From the NCBI GenBank assembly GCA_963772945.1, contig CAVYZJ010000005.1, positions 674,596-714,595 of the forward strand: a DNA stretch of 40,000 nucleotides, given 5' to 3'. Both the position numbers and the translations under genes were made by a program. Position 1 is the stretch's first letter. Every line of letters begins with the position of its first letter. This DNA comes from an uncultured Thermoleophilaceae bacterium. Its GTDB lineage: Bacteria; Actinomycetota; Thermoleophilia; Solirubrobacterales; Thermoleophilaceae. The notes under the pieces were generated by a model. It was not told where the DNA came from. It saw only the letters and a list, made by a program, of their open reading frames with translations, and made no database searches. This document shows, one piece after another, positions 16,282 to 35,266 of this stretch.

Positions 16282-16992
16282 TCAGGACGGTGCCGCGCAT
16301 AGCTCGCGCAGCCGCCCGATCCGCTCGCCGTCGAGAGGCGCGGTGCGCCGCCCGTCGCGACAGGCCGCCGAGCGCACGCCTGCTATGTCGGCGCCCGTGG
16401 CCCGCACCGCGCTCAGGTCCTCCGCGCGCAGTGCTCCGGCGAGCGCCATCTCCAGGCCCGCGGCGTGCGCATCGGCCACCAGCGTCGTGAGTGCGTCGGG
16501 GTCGAGCCACTCGAACAGCCCGCGGCCGTCCTTGAGCGCGGTGTCGAGCAGGCAGCCGCCTACGCCCGCACGGCGCGCCGCCGCGACGAGGGCCCCCGGC
16601 GGCAAAGGCCGGCCGGGCACGCGCTCGGCGTCGGCGTAGGCAGCGGCGATCACGTCCGCCCCGCCGTCGAGGGTGTTCCGAACCGCGGAGAGCACCGCCA
16701 CGGCCCTGTCCTCGGTCGACGTTCCCCACAGCCCGACCTTCACGTAGGCGGCGCCGGACCGCACGGCCCCCAGCGCGGCCAGCGCGGCGGTGCCGGGCAG
16801 GTCGGGCAGGTCGCCAATGGCGGCGCTCACCGGACGCTGGGGCGGCACCACCTCCCGGACACGCTCGATCACGTCCGGCGCCGGGGCACCCAGCGAACCC
16901 TCGGCCGGGTTCTTCACGTCGACGATGTCGACACCTCCCTCGACGGCCACGGACGCCTCGTGGGCGTCGGTGACGCTCACTAGCAACCTCAT
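16282..16992 (-). CDS. mfnB: (5-formylfuran-3-yl)methyl phosphate synthase (MfnB, DUF556 family)
   Basis: MRLLVSV...GGVDIVDVKNPAEGSLGA contains the Schiff-base Lys motif. Later segments are YVKVGL and LLDTALKDG, as in MfnB. ATG 16992 overlaps the mptG stop (ATGA). The track ORF was trimmed from 17133. Confidence 0.8.
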   Translation of the reverse strand: MRLLVSVTDAHEASVAVEGGVDIVDVKNPAEGSLGAPAPDVIERVREVVPPQRPVSAAIGDLPDLPGTAALAALGAVRSGAAYVKVGLWGTSTEDRAVAVLSAVRNTLDGGADVIAAAYADAERVPGRPLPPGALVAAARRAGVGGCLLDTALKDGRGLFEWLDPDALTTLVADAHAAGLEMALAGALRAEDLSAVRATGADIAGVRSAACRDGRRTAPLDGERIGRLRELCAAPS

Positions 16993-17930: not shown

Positions 17931-18508
17931 TCGCTTCCCAATGCGACGCGCACGTGCCTCCGCACGAGCTCCATCGCCTCGAGCTCGCGCGGCCCGGCCG
18001 TCTTGTCGACCAGCACCTGGAGGCGCTCCAGGTCCGCGTGGATCTCGGCAGGCGGGAGGCGGCGCACGCGCGACGCGATGATCGATGCCTCGAGCACCGC
18101 GTGACGCGCCCGGTTGAACCCGAGGAACTCACGCCCGGTCCCCTGCCCGACGACGCGCGTGGTCACCCGCGCGCGCGGCCCACTCGCTTCGATCTCCTCG
18201 ACCTCGACCTCGCGCCAGGAACAGGCGTCCGCCAACACCGCGCCGTCGATCGCCGCTGCGGACCGCGTGGGCGGGCGCGGATCGCCGAGCGCCGCCTGCG
18301 TGAAGAGCAGGATGTCGTCGGTGAGGTGGACCACCGCCGCCCCTGTCGCCTGCAGGTTGCGCAGCGTCCGCGTCGGGCGGTAGGGCTTGATGACGATGAT
18401 CTCGTCGCCCCACTCCACCCCCATCGCGGCGCAGTTGACCGTGCCGTCCGGGTTGATGGTCGTGGTTACCGTCTCGACGATCGCGGCCCCGGGCGGGCGC
18501 GCGCTCAT
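17927..18508 (-). CDS. DUF447-family protein (split-barrel, flavin-reductase-like fold); conserved unknown of H4MPT clusters
   Basis: IVETVTTTINPDGTVNCAAMGV and VIKPYRPTRTLRNL match the DUF447 pattern as I recall it from archaea and methylotrophs. ATG 18508 overlaps the mch stop (ATGA). Confidence 0.65.
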   Translation of the reverse strand: MSARPPGAAIVETVTTTINPDGTVNCAAMGVEWGDEIIVIKPYRPTRTLRNLQATGAAVVHLTDDILLFTQAALGDPRPPTRSAAAIDGAVLADACSWREVEVEEIEASGPRARVTTRVVGQGTGREFLGFNRARHAVLEASIIASRVRRLPPAEIHADLERLQVLVDKTAGPRELEAMELVRRHVRVALGSE

Positions 18509-19455
18509 CCCCTGAAGGACCGCTCGAGGACGCCGACGTCAACGGCCCCGGCGTGAAAGCTGCGCCCGCTCGACACGCTCGTCAGGCGCACCTCGGCCGG
18601 GCTGAAGAGCAGCGGGTCGATCTCGTAGAAGTCGCCGCCGGCTTGCTCGAGTACGCGCGCGAAGGGTTCGCCATGGTCCCGCGAGGCGGACGCGGGCAGG
18701 CGCGGCACGATCGACTCGAGCTCCTCGTCGGGGGCATCGACGCTGAGCTCCACCTGGCCGCCGTAGAGGACGGCGTCGTTGGTGCGACCGATCGCCTCGC
18801 CGTCGTCTCGGGCGACCGGCGGGAGCGGACAGCTCCCGAAACCGCTCACCACTCGCCCGACGTCGAAGTCGAGCTCGTGGAGCTTGTGCAGCGCGGTCTC
18901 GACCACGCGCGCGGCGATCTGAACCCCGCCGGCCAGGCTGGCGGTCGGCGCGAACAGCAGCGTCAGGTCCCCTGCCGTGACACCGGCGCGCTCCGCCACA
19001 TACTCGGCGAGCGGTTCCGGTGGCGGCTCGCGCGCCTCGAGGCACAGCGTCGCGCTCTGCGCCCGCTCGTCGACGTCGAGATCGTCGTAGAGGTCCTCGG
19101 CCCGGATCAAGGCGCGGCCCGGCCCGCTGGCCATCGCGAAGTAGTCGTCCCGGTCCAACTTCCAGCCCGCGTACTGAGAGGCCAGACAGGCAAGCGCCGG
19201 CCGATCGGTCACAACCGTGACCCCGGGAAGCCAGCGGCCCTCGAGCACCAACGGGACGAACGACACCCAGCCCATGCCACCCATGCAGATCTGGGCGAAG
19301 CGGCGGCCGGCCTCGAAGCCACCGGCGACCGCGCTGCCGCAGTCGATCAGGCGCGTGCCGTTCGGGAGCGTCGTGACCTCCACACGCAGGGCGTCGGCCT
19401 CGGCGGCCAGGCGGTCGGCGAGCTCATGTGCGCGATCGTTTAGCGAGGGGGTCAC
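18505..19455 (-). CDS. mch: Methenyltetrahydromethanopterin cyclohydrolase
   Basis: The 316-aa protein has Mch-typical segments ACLASQYAGW, ASGPGRAL and GRTNDAVLYGG. GTG 19455 overlaps the upstream stop (GTGA). Confidence 0.9.
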   Translation of the reverse strand: MTPSLNDRAHELADRLAAEADALRVEVTTLPNGTRLIDCGSAVAGGFEAGRRFAQICMGGMGWVSFVPLVLEGRWLPGVTVVTDRPALACLASQYAGWKLDRDDYFAMASGPGRALIRAEDLYDDLDVDERAQSATLCLEAREPPPEPLAEYVAERAGVTAGDLTLLFAPTASLAGGVQIAARVVETALHKLHELDFDVGRVVSGFGSCPLPPVARDDGEAIGRTNDAVLYGGQVELSVDAPDEELESIVPRLPASASRDHGEPFARVLEQAGGDFYEIDPLLFSPAEVRLTSVSSGRSFHAGAVDVGVLERSFRG

Positions 19456-20573
19456 GATGCGGCCTGAGCATAAGCCTCTCGCTCACCAAGCTCGGTGCGC
19501 AGCGCGGAGGCGCGCTCCTCGAGGTCGGCGAGCACGGCGTGCGGGGAGCCCTGGGTCGAGACGAGCGTGCAGATCGGATGCCCGGCCGCGATCCGCTCGT
19601 GCGGGTGAGGCACGTCGCGAATGCCGCGCGCCGGCCAGCCGCGGGTATCCCCGACGCGCAGGTTACGGGTGGCGAACAGGATCGCCTTGCCGGCCGCCCG
19701 GCGCGGTGCCGGAGCGGGAGCGACCGGGGGCAGACGCCCGGCGCAACCCTCGAGGTGGGCTTCGAAGACGCCCACCCGGTGCGCCGCCTCGACGGGTTCA
19801 AGTGAACCCGTGGGCCGGGGGTTGACCTCGACGACCCAGGCTCGCTCGCCGTCCCACACGAAGTCCACGCCGAACAGCCCCCGGAATCCGAACTGGACAG
19901 CCAGGTGCGCGCAGATCGTCAGCGCGGCGGCGGCCAGCTCGCCTCGCTGCTTCTCCTCGAGCCGCGGCGGCACGAGGTTGCCGCACCACGCGTAGCCGCG
20001 CGCGCCGAGCCCGCGGTGCCCGATCAGCTGCTCGCTCACGCCGAGCACGACGGCCGAGCGGCCGTCGGCGACCGCAGCGGCCGAGCAGGCCAGCCCGGAG
20101 ATCCGCTCCTGCACCACGACATCCCCGTCGAGCGCCCCGCCGCGCCACTGCCGGATGCCCCGCCCGCCGCCGCCGCGCACCGGCTTGCGCAGCCAGCGGC
20201 GCGAGGGCTCCGCGAGCCGGGGAGCGTCGCTGGCGGCGAATGTCTGCGGATACGCGAGGCCGGCTGCCCGCAGGGAGGCGCCCAGGACAGCCGGGTCACG
20301 CACGCGCTCGAGCGTCTCGGGCTGACACCCGAGCAGGGTCCGGCCGGACGCGAGCCGGGCCACGAGCCCCGGCTGGTTCTCCAGGCCCGCGCCGTAGATC
20401 ACGCTCGGCGCGGAGATCTCCTCCGCGGCGTCCACCAACGTCGCCATCCCGCCCCGCCCGCCCAGATCGCGCAGCACGGACACGCTCGGGCAGAGCCGCT
20501 GCAGGTCGAAATCCCCGAAGCGGTCGAGCGCCACCACCTCGTGCCCGGCACTCATCGCCAGCTGGGCGAGCAT
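19452..20573 (-). CDS. ATP-grasp ligase of the H4MPT/methanofuran gene set (COG2232-type, MfnD-like candidate)
   Basis: The ATP-grasp core has VVQERISG, GNLVPP and FGVDFVWDGERAWVVEVNPRP. The coordinates use the first ATG (20573). The conserved N-terminus (LEPILLVAVSAR) continues in frame upstream with no ATG/GTG/TTG, so see the finding on a possible CTG start at 20615. Confidence 0.75.
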   Translation of the reverse strand: MLAQLAMSAGHEVVALDRFGDFDLQRLCPSVSVLRDLGGRGGMATLVDAAEEISAPSVIYGAGLENQPGLVARLASGRTLLGCQPETLERVRDPAVLGASLRAAGLAYPQTFAASDAPRLAEPSRRWLRKPVRGGGGRGIRQWRGGALDGDVVVQERISGLACSAAAVADGRSAVVLGVSEQLIGHRGLGARGYAWCGNLVPPRLEEKQRGELAAAALTICAHLAVQFGFRGLFGVDFVWDGERAWVVEVNPRPTGSLEPVEAAHRVGVFEAHLEGCAGRLPPVAPAPAPRRAAGKAILFATRNLRVGDTRGWPARGIRDVPHPHERIAAGHPICTLVSTQGSPHAVLADLEERASALRTELGEREAYAQAAS

Positions 20574-22701: not shown

Positions 22702-24075
22702 GTGGCCGAGCGGCTCCTGTTCGTAACCGGCAAGCTCGCCGCGGCGGCGCTCCGCGACACGCTGGACCGCACGGAGCTTCCGTTCGACTACGACGTCGCG
22801 GTCATGAAGATCACGGTCGCCGCGCTGATGACCACAACCTGGATCGCGCGCTTCCTCGAGCCTCCCGACGCGGTCACCAAGATCATGATCCCCGGCCTCT
22901 GCGAGGGAGAGACCGACGTGCTGGCGGAGCGCTTCGGAGTCCCGGTCGAGAAGGGCCCGGCGGACCTCAAGCGGCTGCCGGCCTGGTTCGGGCAGGCCGA
23001 CGCGCGCGCCAGCTACGGGCCGCGCGACATCCGCGTGTTCGCGGAGATCAACCACGTTCCGAGGCTGAGCCGCGACCGCATCCTCGAGCTCGCGGGCTAC
23101 TACCGCGACTCCGGCGCCGATGTGATCGACCTGGGCCTGTCGCTCGAGGGCAGCTGGCTCGAGGAGGGCCCGGCGGTGATCGCCGAGCTGCGCGAGCGCG
23201 GCTTCACCCTCAGCATCGACACGATGGACACCGAGGAGATTCTGATGGCCGACGAGGCGGGCGTCGACTACGTCCTCAGCCTCAACGGCTCCAACCGCGA
23301 ACTCGCCGAGCGACTGCGCGCGATCCCGGTGCTCATCCCCGACACGCCCGACGACCTGGACAGCCTCGACGCCACGGTCGCCCACCTCGAGGGCCTCGGC
23401 AAGCCCTACCTCGTCGACCCGATCATCGAGCCGATAGGCACGGGCTTCGCGGCCAGCCTCGGGCGCTACCTGGGGGTGCGCCGGCGCCATCCCGACGCGG
23501 AGATGTTCATGGGGATCGGCAACCTCACCGAGCTGACCGAGGCGGACAGCACGGGGGTGACGGCGACGCTCATCGGCTTCTGCCAGGAGCTAGGCATCCG
23601 CAATGTGCTCACCACCGAGGTCATCGAGTGGGCGCACGGTGCCGTGCGGGAGGCGGTGCTGGCGGCGCAGCTCATGTACTTCGCGCAGGAGCAAGGAACC
23701 CCGCCCAAGCACGTCGACGGGCGGTTGCTGACCGTGAAGGACGAGGACCTCCGCCCTTACGCGGAGTCCGAGCTGCGCGAGCTGCACGCGCAGGTGACCG
23801 ACCCGAACTTCCGGATCTTCGCCGACAGCGAGTGGATCTACGTCTTCAACGCCGAGCTGTTCGTCAAGGGCACCGACTTCAACGAGATCTTCGACCAGCT
23901 CGGGGTGGATGAGCCGACGCACGCCTTCTATCTCGGCAAGGAGCTGATGAAGGCCACTATCGCGCGCGCCCTGCGCAAGAACTATCGCCAGGAATCGCCC
24001 CTCGACTGGGGCTACATGACGTTCGAGGAGCCGCGCCGAGAGCGCGTCCGGCTGACCACGCGGCTCAAGGAGTAG
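22702..24075 (+). CDS. Dihydropteroate synthase-like protein with N-terminal extra domain (H4MPT biosynthesis, MptH-like)
   Basis: The pterin-binding barrel has DVIDLGL, SIDT and GIGNLTELTEADSTGV. It follows an N-terminal about 100-aa domain (LLFVTGKLA...) typical of methylotroph/archaeal DHPS-related proteins. The start is GTG. Confidence 0.8.
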   Translation: MAERLLFVTGKLAAAALRDTLDRTELPFDYDVAVMKITVAALMTTTWIARFLEPPDAVTKIMIPGLCEGETDVLAERFGVPVEKGPADLKRLPAWFGQADARASYGPRDIRVFAEINHVPRLSRDRILELAGYYRDSGADVIDLGLSLEGSWLEEGPAVIAELRERGFTLSIDTMDTEEILMADEAGVDYVLSLNGSNRELAERLRAIPVLIPDTPDDLDSLDATVAHLEGLGKPYLVDPIIEPIGTGFAASLGRYLGVRRRHPDAEMFMGIGNLTELTEADSTGVTATLIGFCQELGIRNVLTTEVIEWAHGAVREAVLAAQLMYFAQEQGTPPKHVDGRLLTVKDEDLRPYAESELRELHAQVTDPNFRIFADSEWIYVFNAELFVKGTDFNEIFDQLGVDEPTHAFYLGKELMKATIARALRKNYRQESPLDWGYMTFEEPRRERVRLTTRLKE

Positions 24076-24152
24076 CCGATTTCCGGGCTTTCATCGACCG
24101 CGGCTACCTGTTAGTGTCGCGCCCCGTCATAGGACCAAGAGGGAGGAGTCGC

Positions 24153-24587
24153 GTGGCCGATATTGCGGAGGCCTTGGACAGGCAGAACGGGGCGACGCTG
24201 GGTCGAATGCTCGGGCGCGGAACCATCGGAGAGGCCGAGGAGTCGGGCGGCACGATGCGTGCCACGGTGCGGATCCCGGAGGACGAGCTGGTCTATGAGC
24301 CCGGAGTACTCGTCCTGCCCCACGGGGGCGTGCTCGAGCTCACGCTCATCAACGACGACAAGAACACGCACTGCGCTGTCCTGCCGAGCAATGGGGACAC
24401 CCAGTTCATCTGGCTGGTCAACCACTCAAAGGGCACGGCAACTCTCGAGCTCGACGGGCCAGGGTACTACTGGTACGGCTCCACGACCGGCAACGACGAG
24501 GGCCGGGGCCTCACCGGCGCGATCGTTGTGAGCGGTGACGTACCGGACGAGGCTCGCCTCGACCGCCCGCCCCAACCCCAGCCGTAG
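24153..24587 (+). CDS. Small soluble cupredoxin-like protein lacking the canonical copper ligands; PQQ-dehydrogenase-associated (MSMEG_3727-like by recollection)
   Basis: SD GGGAGGAG (24141-24148) lies 4 nt upstream of GTG 24153. The beta-sandwich pattern is VLVLPHGGVLELTLINDDKNTHC ... GPGYYWYGSTTGNDEGRGLTGAIVV. It sits immediately upstream of the PQQ dehydrogenase on the same strand. Confidence 0.6.
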   Translation: MADIAEALDRQNGATLGRMLGRGTIGEAEESGGTMRATVRIPEDELVYEPGVLVLPHGGVLELTLINDDKNTHCAVLPSNGDTQFIWLVNHSKGTATLELDGPGYYWYGSTTGNDEGRGLTGAIVVSGDVPDEARLDRPPQPQP

Positions 24588-24623
24588 ACCGCCCGCCACG
24601 CTCACCGTCGAAAGGAGTACTCG

Positions 24624-26318
24624 ATGGCAACCGAGTACGTAGACGCAGGAAGCGCCATCCCCTACGCAACCCTGAGCACGTCGGTCGGCAAGGCGCCGCC
24701 GGTCGCCCAGGGTGTCACCTACGAGCGGATCTTGGGCGCCCGTGACGAACCGAACAACTGGCTGACCTATTACGGCGCCTACAACGGGCAGCGCTACAGC
24801 GCGCTCGACCAGATCAACGCGGAGAACGTCGGGCAACTCACTCCGCAGTGGGTGTTCCAGGCCGGCAATACCGCACTGCGCTCGGGCGCGACGACGTACG
24901 CGTGGGAGGCCTCGCCGCTCGTCGTGGACGGAGTCATGTTCGTCTCCGGCTGGGACGGCCAGTGCTGGGCCCTCGACGCGACGAACGGGCAGGAGCTGTG
25001 GCGCTACAGGCACGCGTCCCCGTTCGACGTGTCGCTGTGCTGCGGCAACGTCAACCGCGGGGTCGCCGTCGCCGAGGGGAAGGTCTTCATGACCACCCTC
25101 AACGCTCATGTGATCGCGCTCGACGCCGAGACCGGCAAGAAGATCTGGGACAAGCCGTTCGGCGATGTGCGGGCCGGCGAGAGCGCCACCGTCGCTCCCC
25201 TGGTCGTGAAGGACATGGTCATCGTCGGGAGCTCCGGCGGCGAGTTCGGGGTGCGCGGCCACACCGACGCGTTCAATCGCGAGACCGGCGAGCACGTGTG
25301 GCGGTGCTACATGATTCCGAAGCCCGGAGAGCCGGGCTCCGACACCTGGCCCGCGGACGGCGAGGCGTGGCAGCGGGGCGGCGCGAACTGTTGGGTCACG
25401 CCTACCTATGACCCGGACCTGAACCTCCTGTACTACGGGACCGGCAATCCGTGTCCCGACTTCGACGGAGGGGTCCGTGAGGGCGACAACCTCTTCACCG
25501 ATTCCGGTGTCGCCGTGGACGCCGACACCGGCGAGATCAAGTCGCACTTCCAGTACACCCCGCACGACCTGTGGGACTACGACTCCGTGATGGAGCACCT
25601 CCTGTTCGACCTCGATGGGCAGAAGCTGGCGGCCCACTTCGACAAGAACGGGTTCCTCTACATCCTGGATCGCACGGATATGTCGCCGGTCCGGGTGGCG
25701 CCGTTCGTCGACCGCATCGATTGGGGCGAGGTCGACGAGAAGGGCAACGTGACGCCGAAGGTCTACCCCGACAAGGAGGGCGACCCGGTGCACTTCTGGC
25801 CGGGCCCGGCCGGCGCCAAGGAGTGGACGCACGCGTGCTACAGCCCGGATACCGAGCTGCTGTACGTCCCGGTGCAGGACGTGGGCGCGACAGCCACGCG
25901 GCGGCGCAGGGAGTTCAAGGAGAGCATCCCGTACTGGGGCGCGGGCGTCGCCGTGGACGGCGACGACCAGACCGGGTACGTGAGCGCCTACGACCCGCGT
26001 ACGGGCCAGGAGCGCTGGCGCTGGACCAGCCCAAAGGACCTGTGCATGTGCTCGTCGCTGCTGGCCACGGGTGGCAACCTCGTGTGGGGAGGCGAGCCCA
26101 GCGGGGAGTTCAACGCGTGGAACGCCGAGAGCGGTGACCTGCTGTGGCAGTTCCAGTGCGGCAGCGGCCACCACTCGAGCCCGTCGACCTACAGCGTCGA
26201 CGGACGGCAGTACGTCGTCGCGCCGGCCGGCTGGGGCGGTTGGGCCGAGGGATTCCTGCCCAAGATGCTCGGATCGTCCCACGGCAGCGCGCTGTTCGCC
26301 TTCGCACTGCCGGAGTAA
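24624..26318 (+). CDS. PQQ-dependent dehydrogenase, methanol/ethanol family, XoxF-like (predicted lanthanide type)
   Basis: The 564-aa protein has the vicinal Cys pair in SLCCGNVNRG, metal Glu in GESATVAPL, metal Asn in GGANCW, and catalytic plus extra Asp in HDLWDYD. It also has repeated propeller W motifs. SD AAAGGAG lies 6 nt upstream of the ATG. Confidence 0.92.
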   Translation: MATEYVDAGSAIPYATLSTSVGKAPPVAQGVTYERILGARDEPNNWLTYYGAYNGQRYSALDQINAENVGQLTPQWVFQAGNTALRSGATTYAWEASPLVVDGVMFVSGWDGQCWALDATNGQELWRYRHASPFDVSLCCGNVNRGVAVAEGKVFMTTLNAHVIALDAETGKKIWDKPFGDVRAGESATVAPLVVKDMVIVGSSGGEFGVRGHTDAFNRETGEHVWRCYMIPKPGEPGSDTWPADGEAWQRGGANCWVTPTYDPDLNLLYYGTGNPCPDFDGGVREGDNLFTDSGVAVDADTGEIKSHFQYTPHDLWDYDSVMEHLLFDLDGQKLAAHFDKNGFLYILDRTDMSPVRVAPFVDRIDWGEVDEKGNVTPKVYPDKEGDPVHFWPGPAGAKEWTHACYSPDTELLYVPVQDVGATATRRRREFKESIPYWGAGVAVDGDDQTGYVSAYDPRTGQERWRWTSPKDLCMCSSLLATGGNLVWGGEPSGEFNAWNAESGDLLWQFQCGSGHHSSPSTYSVDGRQYVVAPAGWGGWAEGFLPKMLGSSHGSALFAFALPE

Positions 26319-26339
26319 CGGCAACACCTGAAGATGCGG

Positions 26340-26365
26340 GGGCCGGCCGCCCTGGCGGCCGGCCC
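26340..26365. terminator. GC-rich hairpin between convergent genes (candidate bidirectional terminator)
   Basis: GGGCCGGCCGC(26340-26350) pairs perfectly with GCGGCCGGCCC(26355-26365), giving a 10-11 bp stem with a 4-6 nt loop. It lies 22 nt after the dehydrogenase stop and 29 nt after the reconstructed CaCA stop. There is no U-tract. Confidence 0.5.
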
Positions 26366-26393
26366 TCACCGTGTTCCAGACGGCGGCCCCGCC

Positions 26394-27511
26394 TCAGTCG
26401 GCCTCGACCGGAGCGCCTCCGTACACGATGTAGCTGATCACCCAGTACGCGATGTACAGACCCAGCAGGGCGTAGCCGTGCCATCGCTTCAGCTGGCCGG
26501 TGTAGAGGAAGCAGCGCGGCGACGGCGGTGATGACGACGAGCGCCGGCAGGTGCCACTTGAGCACGTTCGAGGCGACCGTGACGCTGCCGCCCGGCGACG
26601 ACGATGATGCCGAGCTTCCCCGTGACCGTGAAGATGAGGCTCCCGATGACGTTGCCGACCCCGATCTCCGGCACACCCCTGCGGATGGGCTCCACGGTCA
26701 GAAAGAGGTCTTCGATCGTCAGCAGGGCGGTGATGATGGTCGCACCGAACACGGTGCCCTCGAGCCCGTACTCCTCGAGGATGCCCTCGGTTCCGGTGCT
26801 CACGGTCGCGGCGCCGATGACGATCCCGGCGAGCGCGATGACCGCCAGCCCGAGACTAGGCCAGCCAGGGTGCCTGAGCCCGGTGCCGAACGGCATCATC
26901 GCGGCGACGGCCTCCTCCCGGTCCGGGACCGGCGAGTGCTCCTCGGCCTGCAGTTCCGCCGCCTCGTCATAGACCTCCAGGTTGCGGAACGTCGGGGTCT
27001 CCCGCTTGACCTCCCGGACGGTGACGTACGCGACGAACAGCGCGAACAGCCCGATCAGCACCACCCCCTCAGCGACGCTGATCGGTTCGGCCAGCGCGAA
27101 CACGAGCATTATGAGCGGCGCGGCGGCGAAGATGACGATGTAGTCGCGCGGAACGTTCACCTTGGTCGGCGTGAGGATGGCGCCGAGCGCGAGCACGACT
27201 CCGCTGAACGCGACCGCCGTCCCCAACACCAAGCCAAGCGCGACACCCTCGAGCTCTTCGAGCTGCAGCGCGACTCCCAGAACGATGTCGTCGAACTCGA
27301 TCCCCGTGAACACGATCGCGAGCAGGAAGAGAGAGATCTTGAGCCCGCTCGCCGCCCCGACCAGGGCGTCGATCAGTCGCTCGGCGCTGTACACCAACAG
27401 CACCGCTCCGGAGATGAAGACGAATACGGACTCCAACCAGATCCCCCTCTTGTGCGCGCGGCACCGCGGCGTCCACCGGGCCCCCAAGCGCGGCCGACCT
27501 GCTTCCGTCAC
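26394..27511 (-). pseudogene. Na+/Ca2+ exchanger (CaCA) superfamily membrane protein with two apparent frameshifts in the 3' end
   Basis: The body is polytopic with alpha-repeat-like segments (FTGIEFDDIVLGV; VPEIGVGNVIGSLIF). After GKLGIIVV the sensible sequence continues in a second frame (GGSVTVASNVLKWHLPALVVITAVAALL). It then continues in a third frame (FLYTGQLKRWHGYALLGLYIAYWVISYIVYGGAPVEAD, stop 26394-26396). The likely start is TTG 27436 (MESVFVFISG...) rather than GTG 27511. Confidence 0.55.
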
Positions 27512-28193: not shown

Positions 28194-28214
28194 CGCGCAG
28201 TTCCGGGTTGCGCG
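28194..28214. promoter_or_regulatory. Inverted repeat CGCGCA-N9-TGCGCG in the ChrB-like/ATPase divergent intergenic region (candidate operator)
   Basis: The arms are a perfect 6-bp match (28194-28199 and 28209-28214). They lie in the 60-nt gap between the two divergent start codons. Function is inferred only from position. Confidence 0.25.
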
Positions 28215-28234
28215 GTCGACGTATCATTCGTTTC

Positions 28235-30757
28235 ATGGCGAGCGCAACGCCGGCGTCGCGTCCCGCCGATGGGGCGCCGGCCGTCCCGGTCCACGCAGAG
28301 CCGCTCGCGGCCCTGTGGGAGCGGGCCGGCAGTCGCCCGGGCGGGCTGACGTCCGAGGAGGTCGAGCAGCGGCGCGGCACAGCGGCGGTGCGGACCGAGG
28401 GCAGCCAGACGATGGCGGTTCTCGGGGAGGTGGTCGAGGCGGTCATGGAGCCCCTCCAGCTGCTGCTGGTCGCGGTCGGCGTGCTCTCGGCGATCTTCGG
28501 GGAGCTGCGCGACGCGATCGCGATCTTCGCGATCATCGCGCTGGTCAGCGCGGTCGAGGCGATCTCCGAGGTGCGGGCCAAGCGCGCGCTTCGGGCGCTG
28601 CGCGACCTCAGCGCCCCCAACGCGCTCGTTCGGCGCGCTGGCTCCGTGGCCGCAATCCCGGTCGATACGCTCGTCATCGGCGACGTGCTGCTCGTCGAGG
28701 CCGGCAGCGTCGTGGCCGCCGACGCCCGCGTCGTCGAGGCCGACGGCCTGGCCACGGATGAGTCGCGGCTGACGGGCGAGCCTGTGGCGGCCGCCAAGGG
28801 ACCCGACCCGGTGGCTGCCGACGCGCCGCTCGCCGAGCGGTCCTCGGTGCTGCACGCCGGCAGTGCCGTCGTGTCCGGAGCCGGCGAGGGCCTCGTCGTC
28901 GCTGTGGGCCCGAACACCGAGATCGGGCGTCTTGGGCGGCTCGTCGCGGAGGCCAGGGAGCCGCCCACGCCGCTTCAACGTGCGATGGCCGAGCTGGCGC
29001 GTGCGGCGCTCATCGTGGCGGTTACGGCGTGCGTGGTCGTGCCCCTCGTCGGCGTGCTCCGCGGCCAGCCCGCCCGCGAGATGCTGCTCAACGGGCTGAC
29101 GCTCGCGTTCGCCACGATCCCCGAGGAGCTGCCGATCCTCGTCACCGTGCTGGTGGCGATCGGCGGCCTGCGCCTGGCGCAGCACGGCGTTCTCCTGCGC
29201 CGGCTGCGCGCCGCCGAGGCCGTGGGCGCGATGACCGTGCTGCTCGCCGACAAGACCGGGACGCTGACCGAGAACCGGCTGCTGATCGAGCGCATCGACG
29301 GCGACCGCGAGCACGTGCTGACCGTCGCCGCCGCGGCGCACGGAACGGCGGCCGCACAGGACCCGGTCGATCGCGCGCTGGTGGAGGCCGCCGACGAACG
29401 CGTGTCGAGCGAGCGGCCGGCGCGGAATCCGTTCGACCCGGTGCGCCGGCGCGAGAGCGCGGTGTGGTGCGAGGCCGACGGCGCGTGGGTGGCTGTGAAG
29501 GGCGCACCGGAAGCCGTGCTCGAGGCGTGCGCGATGTCCGAGGCGGACCGGGCATCCGTGCTCGAGCGCGTCGGGCGGCTCGCGGACGACGGGCTGCGGG
29601 TGATCGCCGTGGCGGAGCGTCGCGTCGCCGCGGTTCCCGGCGGTGCCGCCGACGCCGAGACGGACCTCGCATTCGTCGGGCTGGCCGCCTTCCGCGATCC
29701 GTTGCGCCCCGGGGTGGGCGATGCCGTGGCCGAGCTCGCCCATGCGGGCGTGCGGACGATCGTCGTCAGCGGCGACCACCCCGAAACGGTGGCCGCGACC
29801 GCGCGCGAGGCCGGGGTCAACGTTCCCGAGGTCATGCACGGCGGCGCACCGCTCGACGCGCTCGACGACGACGAGCTCGCCGAGCGGCTGCGCGGCGAGG
29901 CCGTGATCGCCCGTGCCACGCCCGAGGACAAGCTGCGGCTCGTGCGGGTCCTCCAGGACAGCGGAGAGGCCGTCGCCGTCACCGGCGACGGCGTGAACGA
30001 CGCGCCCGCCCTCGCCGCGGCGAACGTCGGGATCGCGATGGGCGCGCGCGGGACCGATCTCGCCCGCGAGGCGTCCGATCTCGTCCTCGTCGACGACGCC
30101 TACCCGACGATCGTCGGCGCCGTCGAGGGCGGTCGCGGCCTGGCCTCCCAGCTCCGGCGGGCGGTCGCGTTCTACCTCGGCGCCAAGATCGCGCTCGTCG
30201 TGGTCATCGCCGTGCCGCTGGGGCTGGGGCTCCCCGCCCCGTTCCACCCGGTCCACATCGTCATCCTGGAGCTGTTCATGGACGTAGGCGCGTCGGTGGC
30301 CTTCGTCTCCGAGCCACCGGCGCCGGGCGCGATGGACCACCCCCCGCGCGATCCAGCGCGGCGGTTCCTCGACGACACGCAACTGTCCGCCATCGCACTA
30401 ACGGCCGTGGCGCTTACGGCCGCGGTTCTTCCGACGTTCCTCTTCGTCCACGCCCGGTGGGGCACCGACATGGCGATCGCGGCCGCCGTGGCCGGTTGGC
30501 TCGTCGCGAACGTGGCGATCGCGTGGACGCTGCGCGCCCGGCCGGGTCTGGCCTGGAGGAGCAACGTCGCGTTCCCGGCGTGGGCGCTGATCGCCGTCGC
30601 CAGCGCGGCGATGCTGTCCCTCACCGCGGCGGGGGCCACGCTCGGCGTGGACCCGCTCACCGCCGAAGCGGCGGGTATCACCGTCGGCGTCGCGGCGGCC
30701 GGGGTCGCCCTCGCCGCCGCAGCGCGCGTCGCGCTGTCGCTCTCCCGGCGTCTCTGA
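28235..30757 (+). CDS. Cation-transporting P-type ATPase, P2 (Ca2+/Mg2+-like) type
   Basis: Motifs present are the N-terminal cation-ATPase domain (LTSEEVEQRR), the A-domain TGE motif (ESRLTGEP), TM4 IPEELP, the phosphorylation site LADKTGTLT, and the hinge VTGDGVNDAPALAAANVGIAMG. I prefer ATG 28235 to the track TTG 28208. Confidence 0.9.
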   Translation: MASATPASRPADGAPAVPVHAEPLAALWERAGSRPGGLTSEEVEQRRGTAAVRTEGSQTMAVLGEVVEAVMEPLQLLLVAVGVLSAIFGELRDAIAIFAIIALVSAVEAISEVRAKRALRALRDLSAPNALVRRAGSVAAIPVDTLVIGDVLLVEAGSVVAADARVVEADGLATDESRLTGEPVAAAKGPDPVAADAPLAERSSVLHAGSAVVSGAGEGLVVAVGPNTEIGRLGRLVAEAREPPTPLQRAMAELARAALIVAVTACVVVPLVGVLRGQPAREMLLNGLTLAFATIPEELPILVTVLVAIGGLRLAQHGVLLRRLRAAEAVGAMTVLLADKTGTLTENRLLIERIDGDREHVLTVAAAAHGTAAAQDPVDRALVEAADERVSSERPARNPFDPVRRRESAVWCEADGAWVAVKGAPEAVLEACAMSEADRASVLERVGRLADDGLRVIAVAERRVAAVPGGAADAETDLAFVGLAAFRDPLRPGVGDAVAELAHAGVRTIVVSGDHPETVAATAREAGVNVPEVMHGGAPLDALDDDELAERLRGEAVIARATPEDKLRLVRVLQDSGEAVAVTGDGVNDAPALAAANVGIAMGARGTDLAREASDLVLVDDAYPTIVGAVEGGRGLASQLRRAVAFYLGAKIALVVVIAVPLGLGLPAPFHPVHIVILELFMDVGASVAFVSEPPAPGAMDHPPRDPARRFLDDTQLSAIALTAVALTAAVLPTFLFVHARWGTDMAIAAAVAGWLVANVAIAWTLRARPGLAWRSNVAFPAWALIAVASAAMLSLTAAGATLGVDPLTAEAAGITVGVAAAGVALAAAARVALSLSRRL

Positions 30758-30849
30758 CGCCGGTCCCCGACTGGGTTGGCGGCGACAACTCCGGTGCCGC
30801 AATCGTTCGATACAGTACGGCGCTCTTGTACCCGAGAGGGAGGCGGCGT

Positions 30850-30924
30850 ATGAAGTGGATCAAGCCTGAGTTCGAGATCATGGATCTCTGCACCGAGGTC
30901 ACCCTCTACCTGTACAACCGGTAG
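30850..30924 (+). CDS. pqqA: PQQ precursor peptide PqqA (24 aa)
   Basis: The peptide MKWIKPEFEIMDLCTEVTLYLYNR contains the conserved E-x3-Y cross-link pair (EVTLY) and the ...NR C-terminus. SD GAGGGAGG (30836-30843) lies 6 nt upstream of the ATG. It sits directly upstream of pqqB. It is not an ORF-track entry of its own, but it shares frame and stop (30924) with the 631-aa track ORF 29029..30924, which is spurious upstream. Confidence 0.88.
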   Translation: MKWIKPEFEIMDLCTEVTLYLYNR

Positions 30925-30929
30925 TCAAG

Positions 30930-30958
30930 AGCCCACAGCGGGCGCGGCCCCGAGGGCT
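30930..30958 (+). other. Imperfect stem-loop directly after pqqA (possible attenuator/transcript-stabilising hairpin)
   Basis: AGCCC(30930-30934) pairs with GGGCT(30954-30958). An inner stem pairs CGGG(30939-30942) with CCCG(30949-30952), with a small internal loop. Comparable pqqA-proximal hairpins are described in other PQQ producers. Confidence 0.25.
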
Positions 30959-30966
30959 GCGTCCCG

Positions 30967-31875
30967 GTGGTGCTACACGTGCGAGTTCGAATTCTGGGCT
31001 CGGCCGCGGGCGGGGGGTTTCCGCAATGGAACTGCCATTGCGAAACGTGTGAGGCCGCGCGTGCCGGTGAAGGCGCGCGCCCTCGAACGCAGTCGTCGCT
31101 GGCAATTCGTGGCGGCGAGGGGCCGTGGTTTCTCGTAAACGCCTCGCCTGACGCGCGCCAGCAGCTCGAGGCGCTCGAACCGCAGCGGGCCGACGGTGTC
31201 CGCGCGCCGCCGATCGCAGGCGTGCTTCTGACCGACGCGGAGATCGACCACACAGCGGGGCTCCTGCTCCTGCGCGAGTCGGCGACGCCGGTGCGCGTGT
31301 TCGGCGCCGAGGCCGTCAAGCTGGCGCTGACGCGCGGGTACCCGGTGCTGACAATGCTCGAGCGCTATTGCGGGGCCGTGTGGGAAACGCTGGAACCGGA
31401 GCAGGCGAGACCGCTCGCGGGGTCGAGCCTTACGGTCGAGCCGTTCGAGACCGGCGGCGATGCGCCGCGTTACCTGGAAGGGTCGGACGTCGAGCTTGAG
31501 GCGAGCGGGTTTGTGTTTCGCGACACAGCGAGCGGCGGCGTCGTGACCTACGTCCCCGGTCTGGCCCGGTTGGACAATGACGTGCTGGCCCGGTTCGCCG
31601 AAAGCGACCTCGTGCTCGTCGACGGGACCTTCTGGCGCGACGACGAGCTCGCCCGGCTGGGCATCTCGGAGCGCAGCGCCCATGACATGGGACATGTGCC
31701 GCTCTCGGGCCCCGGCGGGACGCTCGAGGCCCTCGAGGGGCTGGACGGACCGCGCAAGGTGCTGGTCCACATCAACAACACGAACCCGATTCTCCTCGAG
31801 GACTCCCCTGAGCGGGAGGCCGTGCTCCGGGCGGACGTCGAGGTTGCCTACGATGGCCTCGGGTTCGAGCTATGA
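30967..31875 (+). CDS. pqqB: PQQ biosynthesis protein B (metallo-beta-lactamase fold)
   Basis: ILGSAAGGGFPQWNCHCETCEAAR is the PqqB N-terminal signature, and IDHTAGLLLLRE follows later. The start is GTG, among 30967/30970/30979. Confidence 0.9.
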   Translation: MVLHVRVRILGSAAGGGFPQWNCHCETCEAARAGEGARPRTQSSLAIRGGEGPWFLVNASPDARQQLEALEPQRADGVRAPPIAGVLLTDAEIDHTAGLLLLRESATPVRVFGAEAVKLALTRGYPVLTMLERYCGAVWETLEPEQARPLAGSSLTVEPFETGGDAPRYLEGSDVELEASGFVFRDTASGGVVTYVPGLARLDNDVLARFAESDLVLVDGTFWRDDELARLGISERSAHDMGHVPLSGPGGTLEALEGLDGPRKVLVHINNTNPILLEDSPEREAVLRADVEVAYDGLGFEL

Positions 31876-32609
31876 CCGAGACCGCCACCAGACCGATGGG
31901 AGCGCGCGCCCCGTGGCCGCCCGAGGAGTTCATCGCTCACCTGCGCGCACAGGGGACGCGCTACCACAACCTGCACCCCTTCCACCGGCGAATGGACGCG
32001 GGGGAGCTCACACGCGAGGAGCTCCAGCGCTGGGTCGCGAACCGCTTCTACTACCAGAAGTGCATTCCCTTGAAGGACGCGGCGATCCTGGCGAATTGCC
32101 CGGTGATCGAGGTCCGGCGCGAGTGGGTAAGTCGCATCATCGACCACGACGGCACGACCGACGGCACGGGCGGCATCGAGTCGTGGCTGCGGCTCGGCGA
32201 GGCGCTCGGCCTCTCGCGAGAAGAGCTGATGTCGGAGCGGCGCGTACTTCCCGCCGTGCGCTACGCGGTTGACGCCTACGTGAACTTCGCCCGTCAGAAG
32301 CCCTGGATCGAGGCGGTTGCCTCGTCGCTCACCGAGCTCTTCGGGCCGGCCGCGATCCGTGTGCGGCTCGAGGCGCTGGAGCGTCACTACGAGTGGATCG
32401 ACCCCGCGGGGCTCGAGTACTTCCGCACGCGGCTGGTGCAGGCGCCACAGGACGCGCAGTACGCCCTCGACCTCACCGTCGAGCGCTGCCGGACGCGCGA
32501 GCAGCAGGACACTGCCGTCGCGGCGCTTCGCTTCAAGACCGAGATGCTGTGGGCGCAGCTCGAGGCCATCGAGCGCGGAGAAACACAGCCACCGGGGCCG
32601 GAGGGATGA
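31872..32609 (+). CDS. pqqC: Pyrroloquinoline-quinone synthase
   Basis: YHNLHPFHRRM, RFYYQKCIPLKDAAILANCP and YVNFAR are PqqC hallmarks. The ATG overlaps the pqqB stop (ATGA). Confidence 0.95.
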   Translation: MTETATRPMGARAPWPPEEFIAHLRAQGTRYHNLHPFHRRMDAGELTREELQRWVANRFYYQKCIPLKDAAILANCPVIEVRREWVSRIIDHDGTTDGTGGIESWLRLGEALGLSREELMSERRVLPAVRYAVDAYVNFARQKPWIEAVASSLTELFGPAAIRVRLEALERHYEWIDPAGLEYFRTRLVQAPQDAQYALDLTVERCRTREQQDTAVAALRFKTEMLWAQLEAIERGETQPPGPEG

Positions 32610-32869
32610 CTCATCCCCGTCTCGTAACCGGCGCGCGACTTCGGTATGACGAGGTCCGCGAGGAGCACCTGCTGCTGGTTCCCGAAGGTGCGGTGCGGCT
32701 CAACCCCACCGCCGCGGAGGTGCTCGGGCTCTGCGACGGGGCGCGCTCGCTCGACGACATCGTCCGTGCCCTCTCCGAGCGCTACGAGGGCTTCGATCTG
32801 CGCAGCGACGTTGAAGAGCTGATCGACGGCATGACCCAGAGGGGACTCGTGGTCGATGCAGCAGCGTAG
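32606..32869 (+). CDS. pqqD: PqqA-binding chaperone PqqD
   Basis: The 87-aa protein has HLLLVPEGAVRLNPTAAEVLGLCDGARSLDDIV. ATG 32606 overlaps the pqqC stop (ATGA). The track ORF was trimmed from 32393. Confidence 0.9.
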   Translation: MTHPRLVTGARLRYDEVREEHLLLVPEGAVRLNPTAAEVLGLCDGARSLDDIVRALSERYEGFDLRSDVEELIDGMTQRGLVVDAAA

Positions 32870-33953
32870 TCCGGCCGTCCTGACCGCCGAGCTCTCGTAC
32901 CAGTGCCCGCTTCACTGCCCGTACTGCTCGAACCCGGTCGACATCGGCGGCGAGAAGTACCGCAACGAGCTCGAGACCGAGCACTGGATACGGACGTTCA
33001 GGGAGGCGCGTGGCCTAGGCGTCATTCAGCTGGGGCTGTCAGGTGGCGAGCCGATGCTGCGCCGCGATCTGACCGAGCTCTGCGCGGGCGCACGCGAAGC
33101 CGGTCTCTATTCGTCGCTCATCACCGCCGGAACGCTCTTCACACGCGCGCGCGCGGAGGCGCTGAAGACGGCCGGGCTCGACCACGTGCAGATCTCGATC
33201 CAGAGCCCGAACGCCGAGGACAACGACCGGATCGCCGGAAACCGATCGTTCGACAAGAAGATCGCGGCCGCTCGCCTGGCGACGGAGCTCGACTTCCCGC
33301 TGACGATCAACTGCGTCCTGCACCGGCAGAACCTGGATCGGATCGAGGAGGTGCTCGACCTCACGCTCGATCTCGGAGCGCAGCGGCTCGAGCTGGCGAA
33401 CACCCAGTACTACGGCTGGGCGGTCCCCAACCAGGAGGCGCTCATGCCCACCTGGGACCAGCTCCGTCGCGCGGAGGAAGCGGTCCAGCGCTTTCGTGAG
33501 CGCGTCGGCCCCAAGCTCGATGTCCTGTGGGTCCTCCCGGATTACTACGAGGACCTGCCGAAGCCCTGCATGGGCGGCTGGGGCTCGACCGCGATCGTGG
33601 TCGCTCCGAACGGCGACGTGCTGCCCTGCCAGGCGGCGTCGACGATCCCGGGGCTCGAGTTCGCCAACGTCCGCGAGCATTCACTGGAGTGGATCTGGAA
33701 CGAGTCCGACGCTTTCGAGCGCTTCAGGGGGACGGACTGGATGCAGGAGCCGTGCCGAACGTGCCCGCTCGGGCGACAGGAGGTTGACTTCGGCGGCTGC
33801 CGCTGCCAGGCGCTGCGGCTCACGGGCGACGCGGCGGCCACGGATCCGGTCTGCCGGTTCTCGCCGCATCACGACCGAGTCGTCTCGGCACGCGAGTCGG
33901 CGCAGACCGACGAGTTCGTATATCGGACGATGAAGCGCCCGGTGGGCGTCTGA
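32856..33953 (+). CDS. pqqE: Radical SAM/SPASM enzyme PqqE
   Basis: The CxxxCxxC cluster is in YQCPLHCPYCSNP. GLSGGEPMLR follows. The Cys-rich SPASM tail contains PCMGGWG, LPCQAAS, PCRTCP and GGCRCQA. It overlaps pqqD by 14 nt. Confidence 0.95.
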   Translation: MQQRSPAVLTAELSYQCPLHCPYCSNPVDIGGEKYRNELETEHWIRTFREARGLGVIQLGLSGGEPMLRRDLTELCAGAREAGLYSSLITAGTLFTRARAEALKTAGLDHVQISIQSPNAEDNDRIAGNRSFDKKIAAARLATELDFPLTINCVLHRQNLDRIEEVLDLTLDLGAQRLELANTQYYGWAVPNQEALMPTWDQLRRAEEAVQRFRERVGPKLDVLWVLPDYYEDLPKPCMGGWGSTAIVVAPNGDVLPCQAASTIPGLEFANVREHSLEWIWNESDAFERFRGTDWMQEPCRTCPLGRQEVDFGGCRCQALRLTGDAAATDPVCRFSPHHDRVVSARESAQTDEFVYRTMKRPVGV

Positions 33954-33987: not shown

Positions 33988-35013
33988 TCAGCCGCTCCGC
34001 GCCAGCTCGAGCGCATACTCCGGCCACCACTGGCCCGCCGGTGGCGCGCCGGGGCGGCAGGCGCCGTCGCTTCCGCCCGGCTCCTTGACCCACAGGTAGG
34101 CGTCCACCCGGGCCCGACCCGTTTTCGTCGTCGGGTCGTCGCCCAGGGCCCGGCCGGGCGGGTTGCACCAGTTCGGTGGTCCGCCGGCCGCGCGGCTGGG
34201 ACCGTTGCCGTTGCGGCTGGTGTCGATCACGAAGTGCGCCCGGCCCACGCGGCGCGACAGCGCCCTCCCGTAGCGAGCGCTGGTGGCGGTTCGGTAGAAG
34301 TTGCTCACGTTGAGTGCGAAGCCGTCGGCCTGGGCGACCCCCGCCCGGCGCAGGGGGCCGGCCAGGCGGGCCGGAGGCCGCACCCAGCCGGCGTTGCCGG
34401 CGTCGAGGTACACGGTCGTCCCGGGCTTGGCCGACAGAGCTCGCACCGCGTGGCGAAGCAGGGCGAGACGCTCCTCCCGCGCACCGCCCCTCAGGCAGCC
34501 GGTGACCGTCTGGGGAATTGCGTCGGGTTCGACGATCACGGTCGCCCTCCGGTTGCCCAGGCCGCGCGCGAACCGGCCGATCCAGTCCCGGTAGGCCGCG
34601 GCCGACCCGGCGCCTCCGGCGGAGTAGCTCCCGCAGTCGCGCCCGGGGATCCAGTAGGCCACGAGCAGCGCGGACCTGCCCCCCCGGGCGGCCCTGGTGG
34701 TCACCGAGCGGACGTCGGCCTCGACATCACCGTCCTCGGCCAGCCAGTGCGCCGTCGGCTTCGAGGCCAGCTGGGCCATGGCTCGCGCCTCCTCGGTGCG
34801 TCCCTCGGCGCGCCACTGCGCCGCCTGGAGCGCCGCGGGGCTCTTCGGATCGATCCAGAACGACTGACCGGCCAGGGGGTTGTCGGAGCGCGCGACGTTC
34901 ACACCGGCGCCGCTACGGCCTTCGTCCGAAGAGCAGGCGGAGATGCCCAGGCCGAGGCACAGCGCCGTAAGCACCATCATCGACCGCCGGCGGGAATCCG
35001 CTCGTACCCCCAT
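33988..35013 (-). CDS. Glycoside hydrolase family 6 (endo-beta-1,4-glucanase-like) lipoprotein, CslZ-like
   Basis: GH6 segments are VIVEPDAIPQ, YLDAGNAGW, GFALNVSNF, FVIDTSRNGNG and LWVKEPGGSDG. The signal peptide carries a lipobox (RRRSMMVLTALCLGLGISAC). I prefer ATG 35013 to the track TTG 35046. Confidence 0.82.
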   Translation of the reverse strand: MGVRADSRRRSMMVLTALCLGLGISACSSDEGRSGAGVNVARSDNPLAGQSFWIDPKSPAALQAAQWRAEGRTEEARAMAQLASKPTAHWLAEDGDVEADVRSVTTRAARGGRSALLVAYWIPGRDCGSYSAGGAGSAAAYRDWIGRFARGLGNRRATVIVEPDAIPQTVTGCLRGGAREERLALLRHAVRALSAKPGTTVYLDAGNAGWVRPPARLAGPLRRAGVAQADGFALNVSNFYRTATSARYGRALSRRVGRAHFVIDTSRNGNGPSRAAGGPPNWCNPPGRALGDDPTTKTGRARVDAYLWVKEPGGSDGACRPGAPPAGQWWPEYALELARSG

Positions 35014-35129
35014 CCAGAACAGCGTAGAGAGCGTCCGAGGCCGCAATCCTCACCCGAATCTCGAAGAGATGACGCCACTTTGTCGCGATCGCTTGACGGC
35101 TGGCCAAAGTTGGGTTACCAAGGTATGTA

Positions 35130-35192
35130 GGCCGGATCCTGCTTCCGTCAGATCGCAACCTCGGGATCGCAGGAGCGCAGGGGGATCCGGCC
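35130..35192. repeat. 10-bp perfect inverted repeat GGCCGGATCC / GGATCCGGCC enclosing 43 nt with an internal GATCGCA direct repeat
   Basis: The arms are at 35130-35139 and 35183-35192. TCCTGC (35137-35142) can alternatively pair with GCAGGA (35169-35174). GATCGCA occurs at 35151-35157 and 35165-35171. The element lies in the 253-nt, comparatively AT-richer gap upstream of cslA. Confidence 0.4.
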
Positions 35193-35266
35193 AGGCGGCA
35201 GTCGTAAGCCCGTGCCCGCTCCAGGCCCCTGGCGGGACGTGCTCGGCTCGACCGAACAACTTTCCC

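Follow-up and report, generated by a model that had tools for sequence, protein, structure and literature searches.

What role is left for a cupredoxin-like protein that has lost its copper ligands, and why is it kept beside a pyrroloquinoline quinone (PQQ) dehydrogenase when neither of the two carries an export signal? The question is raised by a 40,000-nucleotide stretch of DNA from an uncultured Thermoleophilaceae bacterium (contig CAVYZJ010000005.1, positions 674,596 to 714,595), here called the window, in which a small gene at 24153..24587 on the plus strand encodes a 144-residue protein directly upstream of a PQQ dehydrogenase gene. We have followed up an earlier reading made from the DNA letters and translated reading frames (the sequence-only reading) using the family models TIGR04339 and PF23509, structure prediction with AlphaFold2 followed by Foldseek, and the ratio of nonsynonymous to synonymous substitution rates (dN/dS). 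The protein belongs to the MSMEG_3727 PQQ-associated family and is predicted to have a copper-ligand-less cupredoxin fold. The family itself is already catalogued; its split into two states, a copper-site lipoprotein and a copper-less, signal-less form, is new.

The small protein is an ordinary full-length member of a named, uncharacterised family (TIGR04339/PF23509, MSMEG_3727 PQQ-associated protein). It scored 248.9 bits (E=1.3e-74) against the NCBIfam model TIGR04339, for which the curated cut-off is 75, and 245.4 bits (E=1.9e-73) against Pfam PF23509 with a cut-off of 27. Beyond PF23509 the Pfam scan of the protein gave only a sub-threshold chance match to Glyco_hydro_42C (E=0.027), and no match to MxaI, the methanol dehydrogenase small subunit. 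The mycobacterial 'PQQ-associated' protein to which the sequence-only reading referred is thus a real family with the window protein as a member. Public data (metagenomes, clustered at 90% identity) hold approximately 1,950 homologous clusters, and a search of 1.8 billion representative proteins returned 131 family representatives only; the family is therefore compact. The dehydrogenase MSMEG_3726, neighbour of MSMEG_3727, is named in PMC3023750 (Haft 2011), and the M. smegmatis cluster MSMEG_3721-3727 is mentioned in PMC6529628 (Krishnamoorthy 2019). Our literature search found no functional study of the family, and no report of its cupredoxin nature or of the copper-site/copper-less split.

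The AlphaFold2 model of the small protein was built from 16 diverse family members. The mean predicted local distance difference test score (pLDDT) was 81, with 85-95 in the core, and the model consists of an N-terminal helix followed by eight strands as assigned by DSSP. These strands form the predicted cupredoxin beta-sandwich core, residues 34-127 (24252..24533, plus strand). A Foldseek search against the PDB returned auracyanin, CupA, a Cupredoxin_1 protein from B. anthracis, AcoP and the CuA domain of N2O reductase, all with a probability of 1.00. The eight-stranded Greek-key beta-sandwich of the cupredoxin superfamily is present in the model, and a modelled family member with an intact copper site agrees with the window protein in its fold and in its top structural matches. 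A cupredoxin fold, as proposed in the sequence-only reading, is supported by these models. We also considered a degenerate first domain of a multicopper oxidase, an idea that rested on a weak match to CopA (E=0.074) and on the resemblance of GYYWYGST to GTxWYHSH. This was ruled out, as the family homologues are single-domain proteins with a type-1 C-x4-H-x4-M site and not with the HxH motifs of a trinuclear cluster.

The former copper site separates the family into two classes. When the four residues at query positions 73, 110, 115 and 120 were read from 300 homologues, 134 had His, Ser, Asp and Leu (HSDL, the state of the window protein), 127 had His, Cys, His and Met (HCHM), and a few had other combinations. 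A profile of the HCHM class matched the N-terminal cupredoxin domain of Cu nitrite reductases (6tfd/2dv6, E=8e-9), pseudoazurin (3tu6, E=9e-8) and plastocyanin (1bxu, E=2e-5), and its His, Cys, His and Met fall on the actual ligands of the solved type-1 domains with equal C-x4-H-x4-M spacing. Aligned with the copper-site homologues, the window protein has Ser110 for the ancestral Cys, Asp115 for His and Leu120 for Met, and has kept the upstream ligand His73, which by way of the HCHM profile aligns with the corresponding ligand in solved blue copper proteins. His73 (codon 24369..24371, plus strand) is the sole retained ancestral copper ligand and is invariant in all aligned family members. From the loop GPGYYWYGSTTGNDEGRGLTGAIVV, residues 102-126 of the small protein, it had been proposed that Cys, His and Met were replaced by Gly/Ser, Asn/Asp and Leu; the homologues with C-x4-H-x4-M at the aligned positions now make these replacements exact. 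Divergent family members combine a signal or lipoprotein sequence with the loop GYYWFGCPVADHAGRGMLG. The ligand pattern of type-1 copper proteins, His...Cys-x(n)-His-x(n)-Met, is absent from the window protein.

The former copper-ligand loop G109-L120, GSTTGNDEGRGL (24477..24512, plus strand), was compared with the 134 HSDL and 127 HCHM sequences. In the HSDL class, S110, G113, N114, D115, G117 and L120 are 100% conserved and E116 and R118 98% conserved. The HSDL loops PEDEL, NDDKNTHC, VNHS and GS..GNDEGRGL are nearly invariant, a conservation that is partly due to narrower sampling of this class. H91, D115 and E116 are conserved at 95-100% in the class, which has also gained Tyr105, Tyr108 and Trp87 near the former site. 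The only Cys of the small protein, C74, stands beside H73 in KNTHC, and further His residues are found at H57 (LPHGG) and H91 (VNHSKG), as had been read from the translation. In the divergent HSDL members P0126 and P0132 the residue at position 74 is Ala or Ser, and in P0132 His91 is Gly; GNDEG persists in both. The suggestion of a novel site on KNTHC is weakened by this lack of conservation of Cys74 and His91 among divergent copper-less members. A redox site on Cys74 and His73 was likewise judged unlikely, given Ala or Ser at position 74 in these members and given that adjacent residues on a beta-strand face opposite sides.

Loss of the copper ligands is accompanied by loss of export signals. 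A lipobox was found in 109 of 127 HCHM members and a hydrophobic N-terminus in 118 of 124, and neither feature in any of the 134 HSDL members. The N-terminus of the window protein has no hydrophobic segment, lipobox or twin-arginine motif. Its gene can be extended upstream by at most 13 codons (alternative GTG at 24114), and a signal peptide is excluded because these upstream codons are non-hydrophobic. The export signal that accompanies type-1 copper proteins is thus missing from the window protein. At one copper-site locus (L003) the small protein (LAGC) and the dehydrogenase (LIGC) are both lipoproteins, and the actinobacterial small protein and dehydrogenase match the mature parts of these counterparts. 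HCHM sequences come from Gemmatimonadaceae, Thermoanaerobaculia and similar bacteria, and all HSDL members with a taxonomic label are from Actinomycetota. Net charge at the former copper end (loops 42-46, 68-72, 89-92 and 111-119, placed at one end from strand order and standard cupredoxin topology) is -4.1 in HSDL vs -0.9 in HCHM. Judged by ligands and export, the window protein is predicted not to be a type-1 copper protein, yet fold and ancestry appear to be common to both.

In all 80 HSDL genome loci, and in 60 of the 61 HCHM metagenome loci with enough downstream sequence, a PQQ dehydrogenase follows directly 3' of the small gene on the same strand. The dehydrogenase is also directly downstream of the small gene in the L003/L004 and L090 loci. 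Co-occurrence of the two genes, which the sequence-only reading had named as a check of its proposal, is thus near-absolute. The same reading took the small protein for the only dedicated neighbour of the dehydrogenase. It is the only universal one, as no gene besides the pair is universal within 6 kb of the related loci; about 57% of these loci also carry an MntP-like protein right after the dehydrogenase, however. This multi-pass protein of 175-198 residues follows on the same strand in approximately 48 of 84 related loci (e.g. L006/L007/L009). A pqqB gene is located approximately 4 kb downstream in 46 related loci.

Some loci depart from the simple pair. In a Gemmatimonadaceae locus (L001, 7448-8582) two tandem copper-site small genes precede the dehydrogenase and are themselves immediately preceded by a gene for a beta-carbonic anhydrase. 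One metagenome contig (L088) carries paralogous pairs at 238-2599 (minus strand) and 6001-8298 (plus strand), one with an HCHM and one with an HSQM small protein, and all four proteins are lipoproteins. A member with Asp for the Cys ligand (HDHM; L089:1151-1918, 255 residues with a long C-terminal extension) has no adjoining PQQ dehydrogenase and is flanked by a VKOR-family gene and an isochorismatase-family gene. Every family state is taken in by the TIGR04339 model, which gives 163 bits to the copper-site lipoprotein P0252 and 113 bits to the HSQM protein P0493.

Two parts of the small protein outside the core are conserved across both classes. The N-terminal segment, residues 2-33 (24156..24251, plus strand; predicted helix 2-22), is modelled with low confidence and has D9, N12, R18, G23, A28 and G33 in common between HSDL and HCHM. 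The C-terminal tail, residues 131-144, PDEARLDRPPQPQP (24543..24584, plus strand), is among the elements best conserved across both states: within EA[RK]LDRPxQPxP, the residues A134, L136, D137, R138, P139, Q141 and P144 are conserved at approximately 84-99% in both classes, and E133 at 93% in HSDL and 74% in HCHM. With the small protein modelled alone, the pLDDT was 58 over residues 1-20 and 60-66 in the tail, and the termini of the HCHM member are likewise of low confidence when folded alone. Segments that are conserved yet predicted not to fold by themselves are typical of partner-binding segments. The N-terminal segment and the C-terminal tail would, then, clamp onto the dehydrogenase, because this is the only shared partner.

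The reading frame itself is certainly a real gene under purifying selection. It starts with GTG at 24153 and stops with TAG at 24585-24587, and a Shine-Dalgarno sequence, AGGGAGGAG (24140..24148, plus strand), is found 4 nt 5' of the start codon. After the stop codon 36 nt remain to the ATG at 24624 of the dehydrogenase on the same strand; the strong Shine-Dalgarno, the gap, the shared strand, the missing signal peptide and the placement of Cys and His all stand as first described. GC content by codon position is 0.70/0.47/0.86. The median dN/dS, calculated by the Nei-Gojobori method over 150 pairs of related loci, is 0.19 for the small gene vs 0.32 for the dehydrogenase, a rough measure in a genome of 71% GC. 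Between the small gene and the dehydrogenase gene, which are read in one frame, there are just one stop codon and 12 codons; approximately 17 related loci share the frame. This looks like chance and not like programmed read-through, because only these loci have it. Long 'fusion' proteins of the small protein and the dehydrogenase were found in the library and were rejected as frameshifted reads. A promoter and terminator scan of 23900-26700 found none.

The neighbouring gene (24624..26318, plus strand; Shine-Dalgarno AAAGGAG at 24611..24617, plus strand) encodes a signal-less PQQ-dependent alcohol/methanol dehydrogenase of 564 residues. It scored 582 bits against TIGR03075, and its closest solved relative is the lanthanide-dependent PedH (6zcw/6zcv, E approximately 1e-104). 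No hydrophobic segment is found at the N-terminus, and the protein cannot be extended 5' because the in-frame stop codon of the small gene at 24585-24587 closes the frame. The vicinal Cys139-Cys140 (25038..25043, plus strand) aligns with PedH and is part of LCCG in 80 of 80 related loci. D318-Y319-D320 (25575..25583, plus strand) of WDYD, which begins with W317, aligns with WDFD of PedH, and PHDxWDYD is found in 78 of 80 related loci; from established knowledge of XoxF and PedH we take the second Asp to be a lanthanide ligand. By the match to TIGR03075, the vicinal Cys pair and the extra Asp two residues past the catalytic Asp, the enzyme is predicted to be of the lanthanide type.

In exported dehydrogenases the residues corresponding to 392 and 421 of the window enzyme are Cys (97% each), and the actinobacterial enzymes have Trp392 and Gly421. 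We take this Cys pair to be the second, structural disulfide of methanol dehydrogenases, and its apparent loss fits a reducing compartment. A run of four arginines, Arg426-Arg429 (25899..25910, plus strand), adjoins the lost Cys at position 421; it is 100% Arg in 71 dehydrogenases of the actinobacterial, signal-less class and variable in 39 exported ones. Possibly the acidic face of the small protein has its counterpart in these arginines.

How, then, can the locus be explained? We would put at about even the chance that the small protein, as the descendant of a blue-copper electron acceptor, now serves a cytoplasmic dehydrogenase as an accessory subunit that is tightly bound and free of copper. 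This reading is favoured because copper site and export signals have been lost, yet the gene is still strongly constrained. The ancestor would have been a lipoprotein of the type-1 blue copper kind in diderm soil bacteria, dedicated to a lanthanide-type PQQ dehydrogenase whose electrons it probably accepted; the HCHM members are most simply read as such dedicated, membrane-tethered blue-copper acceptors. On the actinobacterial branch several changes would have come together: the export signals would have been lost from both proteins, the copper ligands Cys/His/Met would have changed to Ser110/Asp115/Leu120, and the former copper face would have turned acidic and become almost invariant. The small protein may then dock through its N-terminal segment and the LDRPxQPxP tail, with the former copper face toward the enzyme, possibly at the Arg-rich loop. 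Once docked it would aid assembly, PQQ or metal loading or active-site gating, and would not transfer electrons by copper; an ancestral role as electron acceptor and a present non-redox role are what we infer.

Several points weigh against the accessory subunit. The physical complex, its docking elements and the cytoplasmic location are themselves inferred. The main weakness is the path of the electrons, which a redox-inactive partner leaves unexplained: a cytoplasmic PQQ dehydrogenase needs a high-potential acceptor, and none is encoded nearby. Menaquinone and NAD+ are not comfortably reduced by PQQH2, whose couple is too oxidising, and in Actinobacteria the high-potential carriers face outward. 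A new metal or redox centre would account just as well for a former ligand loop that is almost invariant. That ligands can be lost without loss of export is shown by the HSQM protein on L088, an exported, copper-ligand-poor variant. The contrasts between the clades amount to approximately one evolutionary transition, so that the correlations are leads of little statistical weight. Finally, the acid shift may be a general cytoplasmic adaptation, since the dehydrogenase has also gained many acidic residues.

The need for an acceptor speaks for a protein that still accepts electrons, now at a new metal site formed by His73, Asp115/Glu116 and perhaps His91, where the type-1 copper would have given way to an aromatic relay or to a centre with hard ligands around copper, iron or manganese. 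The ancestral role of the family was very likely electron transfer, a CxxCH motif was found in none of the 29 candidate window genes scanned, and this reading would make use of the invariant His73, of H91, D115 and E116, and of the Tyr105, Tyr108 and Trp87 gained near the site. Engineered azurins with Cys to Asp and Met to Leu changes ('type zero' copper) stay redox-active. Three of the four copper ligands are lost here, however; His91 (Gly in P0132) and Cys74 (Ser/Ala) vary in divergent copper-less members, and one His with carboxylates corresponds to no known electron-transfer site, so that we consider such an acceptor unlikely. We are similarly doubtful of a role in handling Ca2+, lanthanide or metal-PQQ, in which the site, refitted with the oxygen donors Ser110, Asn114, Asp115 and Glu116 and the PEDEL and NDD loops, would deliver a hard cation to the cytoplasmic dehydrogenase. 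The loops at this (north) end carry approximately three more negative charges than in copper-site homologues, GNDEG is the most conserved HSDL signature with divergent members included, and the WDYD of the partner enzyme is of the lanthanide type. Genes for a Ca/Na antiporter and for an ATPase of the Ca type lie nearby in the window, the MntP-like gene is found in approximately 48 of 84 loci, the cupredoxin-fold metallochaperone CupA (4f2e) is among the top structural matches, and MxaJ shows that a PQQ dehydrogenase can require a loading chaperone (PMC12276312). Against this, the protein has no recognisable EF-hand or lanmodulin-like motif, the acidic residues are absent from the exported HSQM variant, and the acidity may merely complement the Arg-rich loop of the enzyme or reflect cytoplasmic adaptation; moreover, termini conserved in both classes favour a permanent subunit over a transient chaperone.

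A naturally copper-free cupredoxin with a metal site rebuilt from Ser110, Asn114, Asp115, Glu116 and neighbouring acidic loops, used for lanthanide or calcium delivery or as an acceptor through a new kind of site, is a reading that we also consider unlikely. Far less probable still is a functionless relic, a decaying former electron carrier held in place by operon inertia. The loss of three copper ligands is what such a relic would show, but the dN/dS of 0.19 is below that of the dehydrogenase, dozens of positions are invariant with the former ligand loop among them, the gene is intact beside the dehydrogenase in 80 of 80 genomes of the clade, and it has its own strong Shine-Dalgarno. Because of these conservation data the relic is effectively refuted.

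The surrounding DNA is, by its predicted genes, a compact and complete methylotrophy island of the tetrahydromethanopterin (H4MPT) type at 1230-33953 in a Thermoleophilaceae-like genome. The nearest genome loci are from metagenome-assembled genomes of Thermoleophilaceae and Solirubrobacteraceae, with identity up to 91%. The island includes genes for an MtdB-like protein (4725-5615, minus strand), Fae (5616-6128, minus strand), FhcB-like (6063-7475), FhcA (7476-9131), FhcD (8942-10030), para-aminobenzoate synthase (10770-13985, minus strand) and Mch (18505-19482, minus strand), and several genes of H4MPT-biosynthesis type. Downstream of the dehydrogenase follow a membrane protein of the Ca2+/Na+ antiporter family (26489..27511, minus strand; PF01699, TIGR00367-like but under the curated cut-off) and an E1-E2 P-type ATPase nearest to Ca2+-transporting types (28208..30757, plus strand; best NCBIfam match TIGR01522, Ca2+ PMR1-type, under the curated cut-off). 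Cation transporters thus recur beside the dehydrogenase, the MntP-like protein of related loci included, and their task may be the supply or control of Ca2+, lanthanide or Mn.

The pqqABCDE operon (30850..33953, plus strand) begins approximately 4.5 kb beyond the end of the dehydrogenase and was assigned by Pfam (PqqB-like, PqqC, PqqD, radical SAM with SPASM). Its genes are pqqA (30850-30924), pqqB (approximately 30925-31875), pqqC (31872-32609), pqqD (32606-32869) and pqqE (32856-33953). The PqqA peptide, MKWIKPEFEIMDLCTEVTLYLYNR, shows up only at the end of a spurious 631-residue open reading frame (ORF) at 29029-30924 and has its own Shine-Dalgarno, GAGGGAGG. Among the window genes scanned with Pfam, neither the MxaI family nor a solute-binding family of the MxaJ/XoxJ type was found. 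Unrelated to the small gene, a family-2 glycosyltransferase gene (34868-37018) is followed by a gene for a copper radical oxidase resembling GlxA/galactose oxidase (36997-38937), a pair at 34868-38937 which presumably resembles cslA-glxA of Streptomyces. The ORFs 364-951 and 16303-16983, both on the plus strand, have a coding-like GC content at the third codon position but did not match any Pfam family; either they are shadow ORFs, as may arise in a high-GC genome, or they could be uncharacterised genes.

PQQ- and lanthanide-dependent alcohol dehydrogenases are usually described as periplasmic enzymes passing electrons to cytochrome c. The family suggests two exceptions to this description: in soil bacteria of the Gemmatimonadota/Acidobacteriota type the enzyme appears to have a blue-copper lipoprotein as its dedicated partner, and in Actinomycetota a signal-less enzyme is paired with a copper-less partner. 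For a Gram-positive organism it is in itself unusual to oxidise methanol with PQQ and lanthanide in what is apparently the cytoplasm. Either of the oxygen-donor-site readings, if true, would explain lanthanide and PQQ chemistry inside Gram-positive methylotrophs without cytochrome c. The contrast between copper-site and copper-less members gives testable handles on a family widespread in soil and bears on the fate of electrons from a cytoplasmic PQQ dehydrogenase, and M. smegmatis, the carrier of the namesake cluster, is a genetic system for the family.

The MSMEG_3727 family is one of the closest known systems. As in the namesake cluster MSMEG_3721-3727, the window protein adjoins a PQQ dehydrogenase and pqq genes, and there is no difference in membership; the family models pool copper-site lipoproteins, the HSQM variant and copper-less cytoplasmic forms. 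MxaI and MxaJ are small accessory proteins dedicated to a PQQ dehydrogenase, as is proposed for the window protein, and MxaJ binds the catalytic subunit MxaF and loads PQQ (PMC12276312). Both are periplasmic and have no sequence kinship with the window protein. CupA (4f2e), a Cu(I) chaperone of Streptococcus pneumoniae, is among the top structural matches of both models and shows that the fold can serve metal delivery; it binds Cu(I) by Cys and Met, of which the window protein has none at the site.

In CyoA, subunit II of quinol oxidase, a cupredoxin domain has been kept structurally after loss of CuA, and the electron route has changed. This is a precedent for a metal-less cupredoxin in a redox enzyme, though the CyoA domain is anchored in the membrane and belongs to a terminal oxidase, whereas the window protein is kin by fold only and has a different partner enzyme. 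The type-1 blue copper proteins (pseudoazurin, plastocyanin, auracyanin and the N-domain of the Hyphomicrobium-type Cu nitrite reductase) have the Greek-key fold in common with the window protein and the H...C-x4-H-x4-M ligand pattern in common with its family homologues. The window protein differs from them by Ser/Asp/Leu at the ligand positions, by the lack of an export signal and by extra conserved segments at the N- and C-termini. Two cupredoxins that act as acceptors of quinoproteins are amicyanin, paired with methylamine dehydrogenase, and azurin, which serves quinohemoprotein alcohol dehydrogenase. To be the specific acceptor of a quinoprotein dehydrogenase, as a small cupredoxin encoded beside it or working with it, is also the likely role of the HCHM members; amicyanin and azurin are copper-binding, periplasmic and diffusible, whereas the window protein, without a copper site and apparently located in the cytoplasm, has the look of a fixed subunit.

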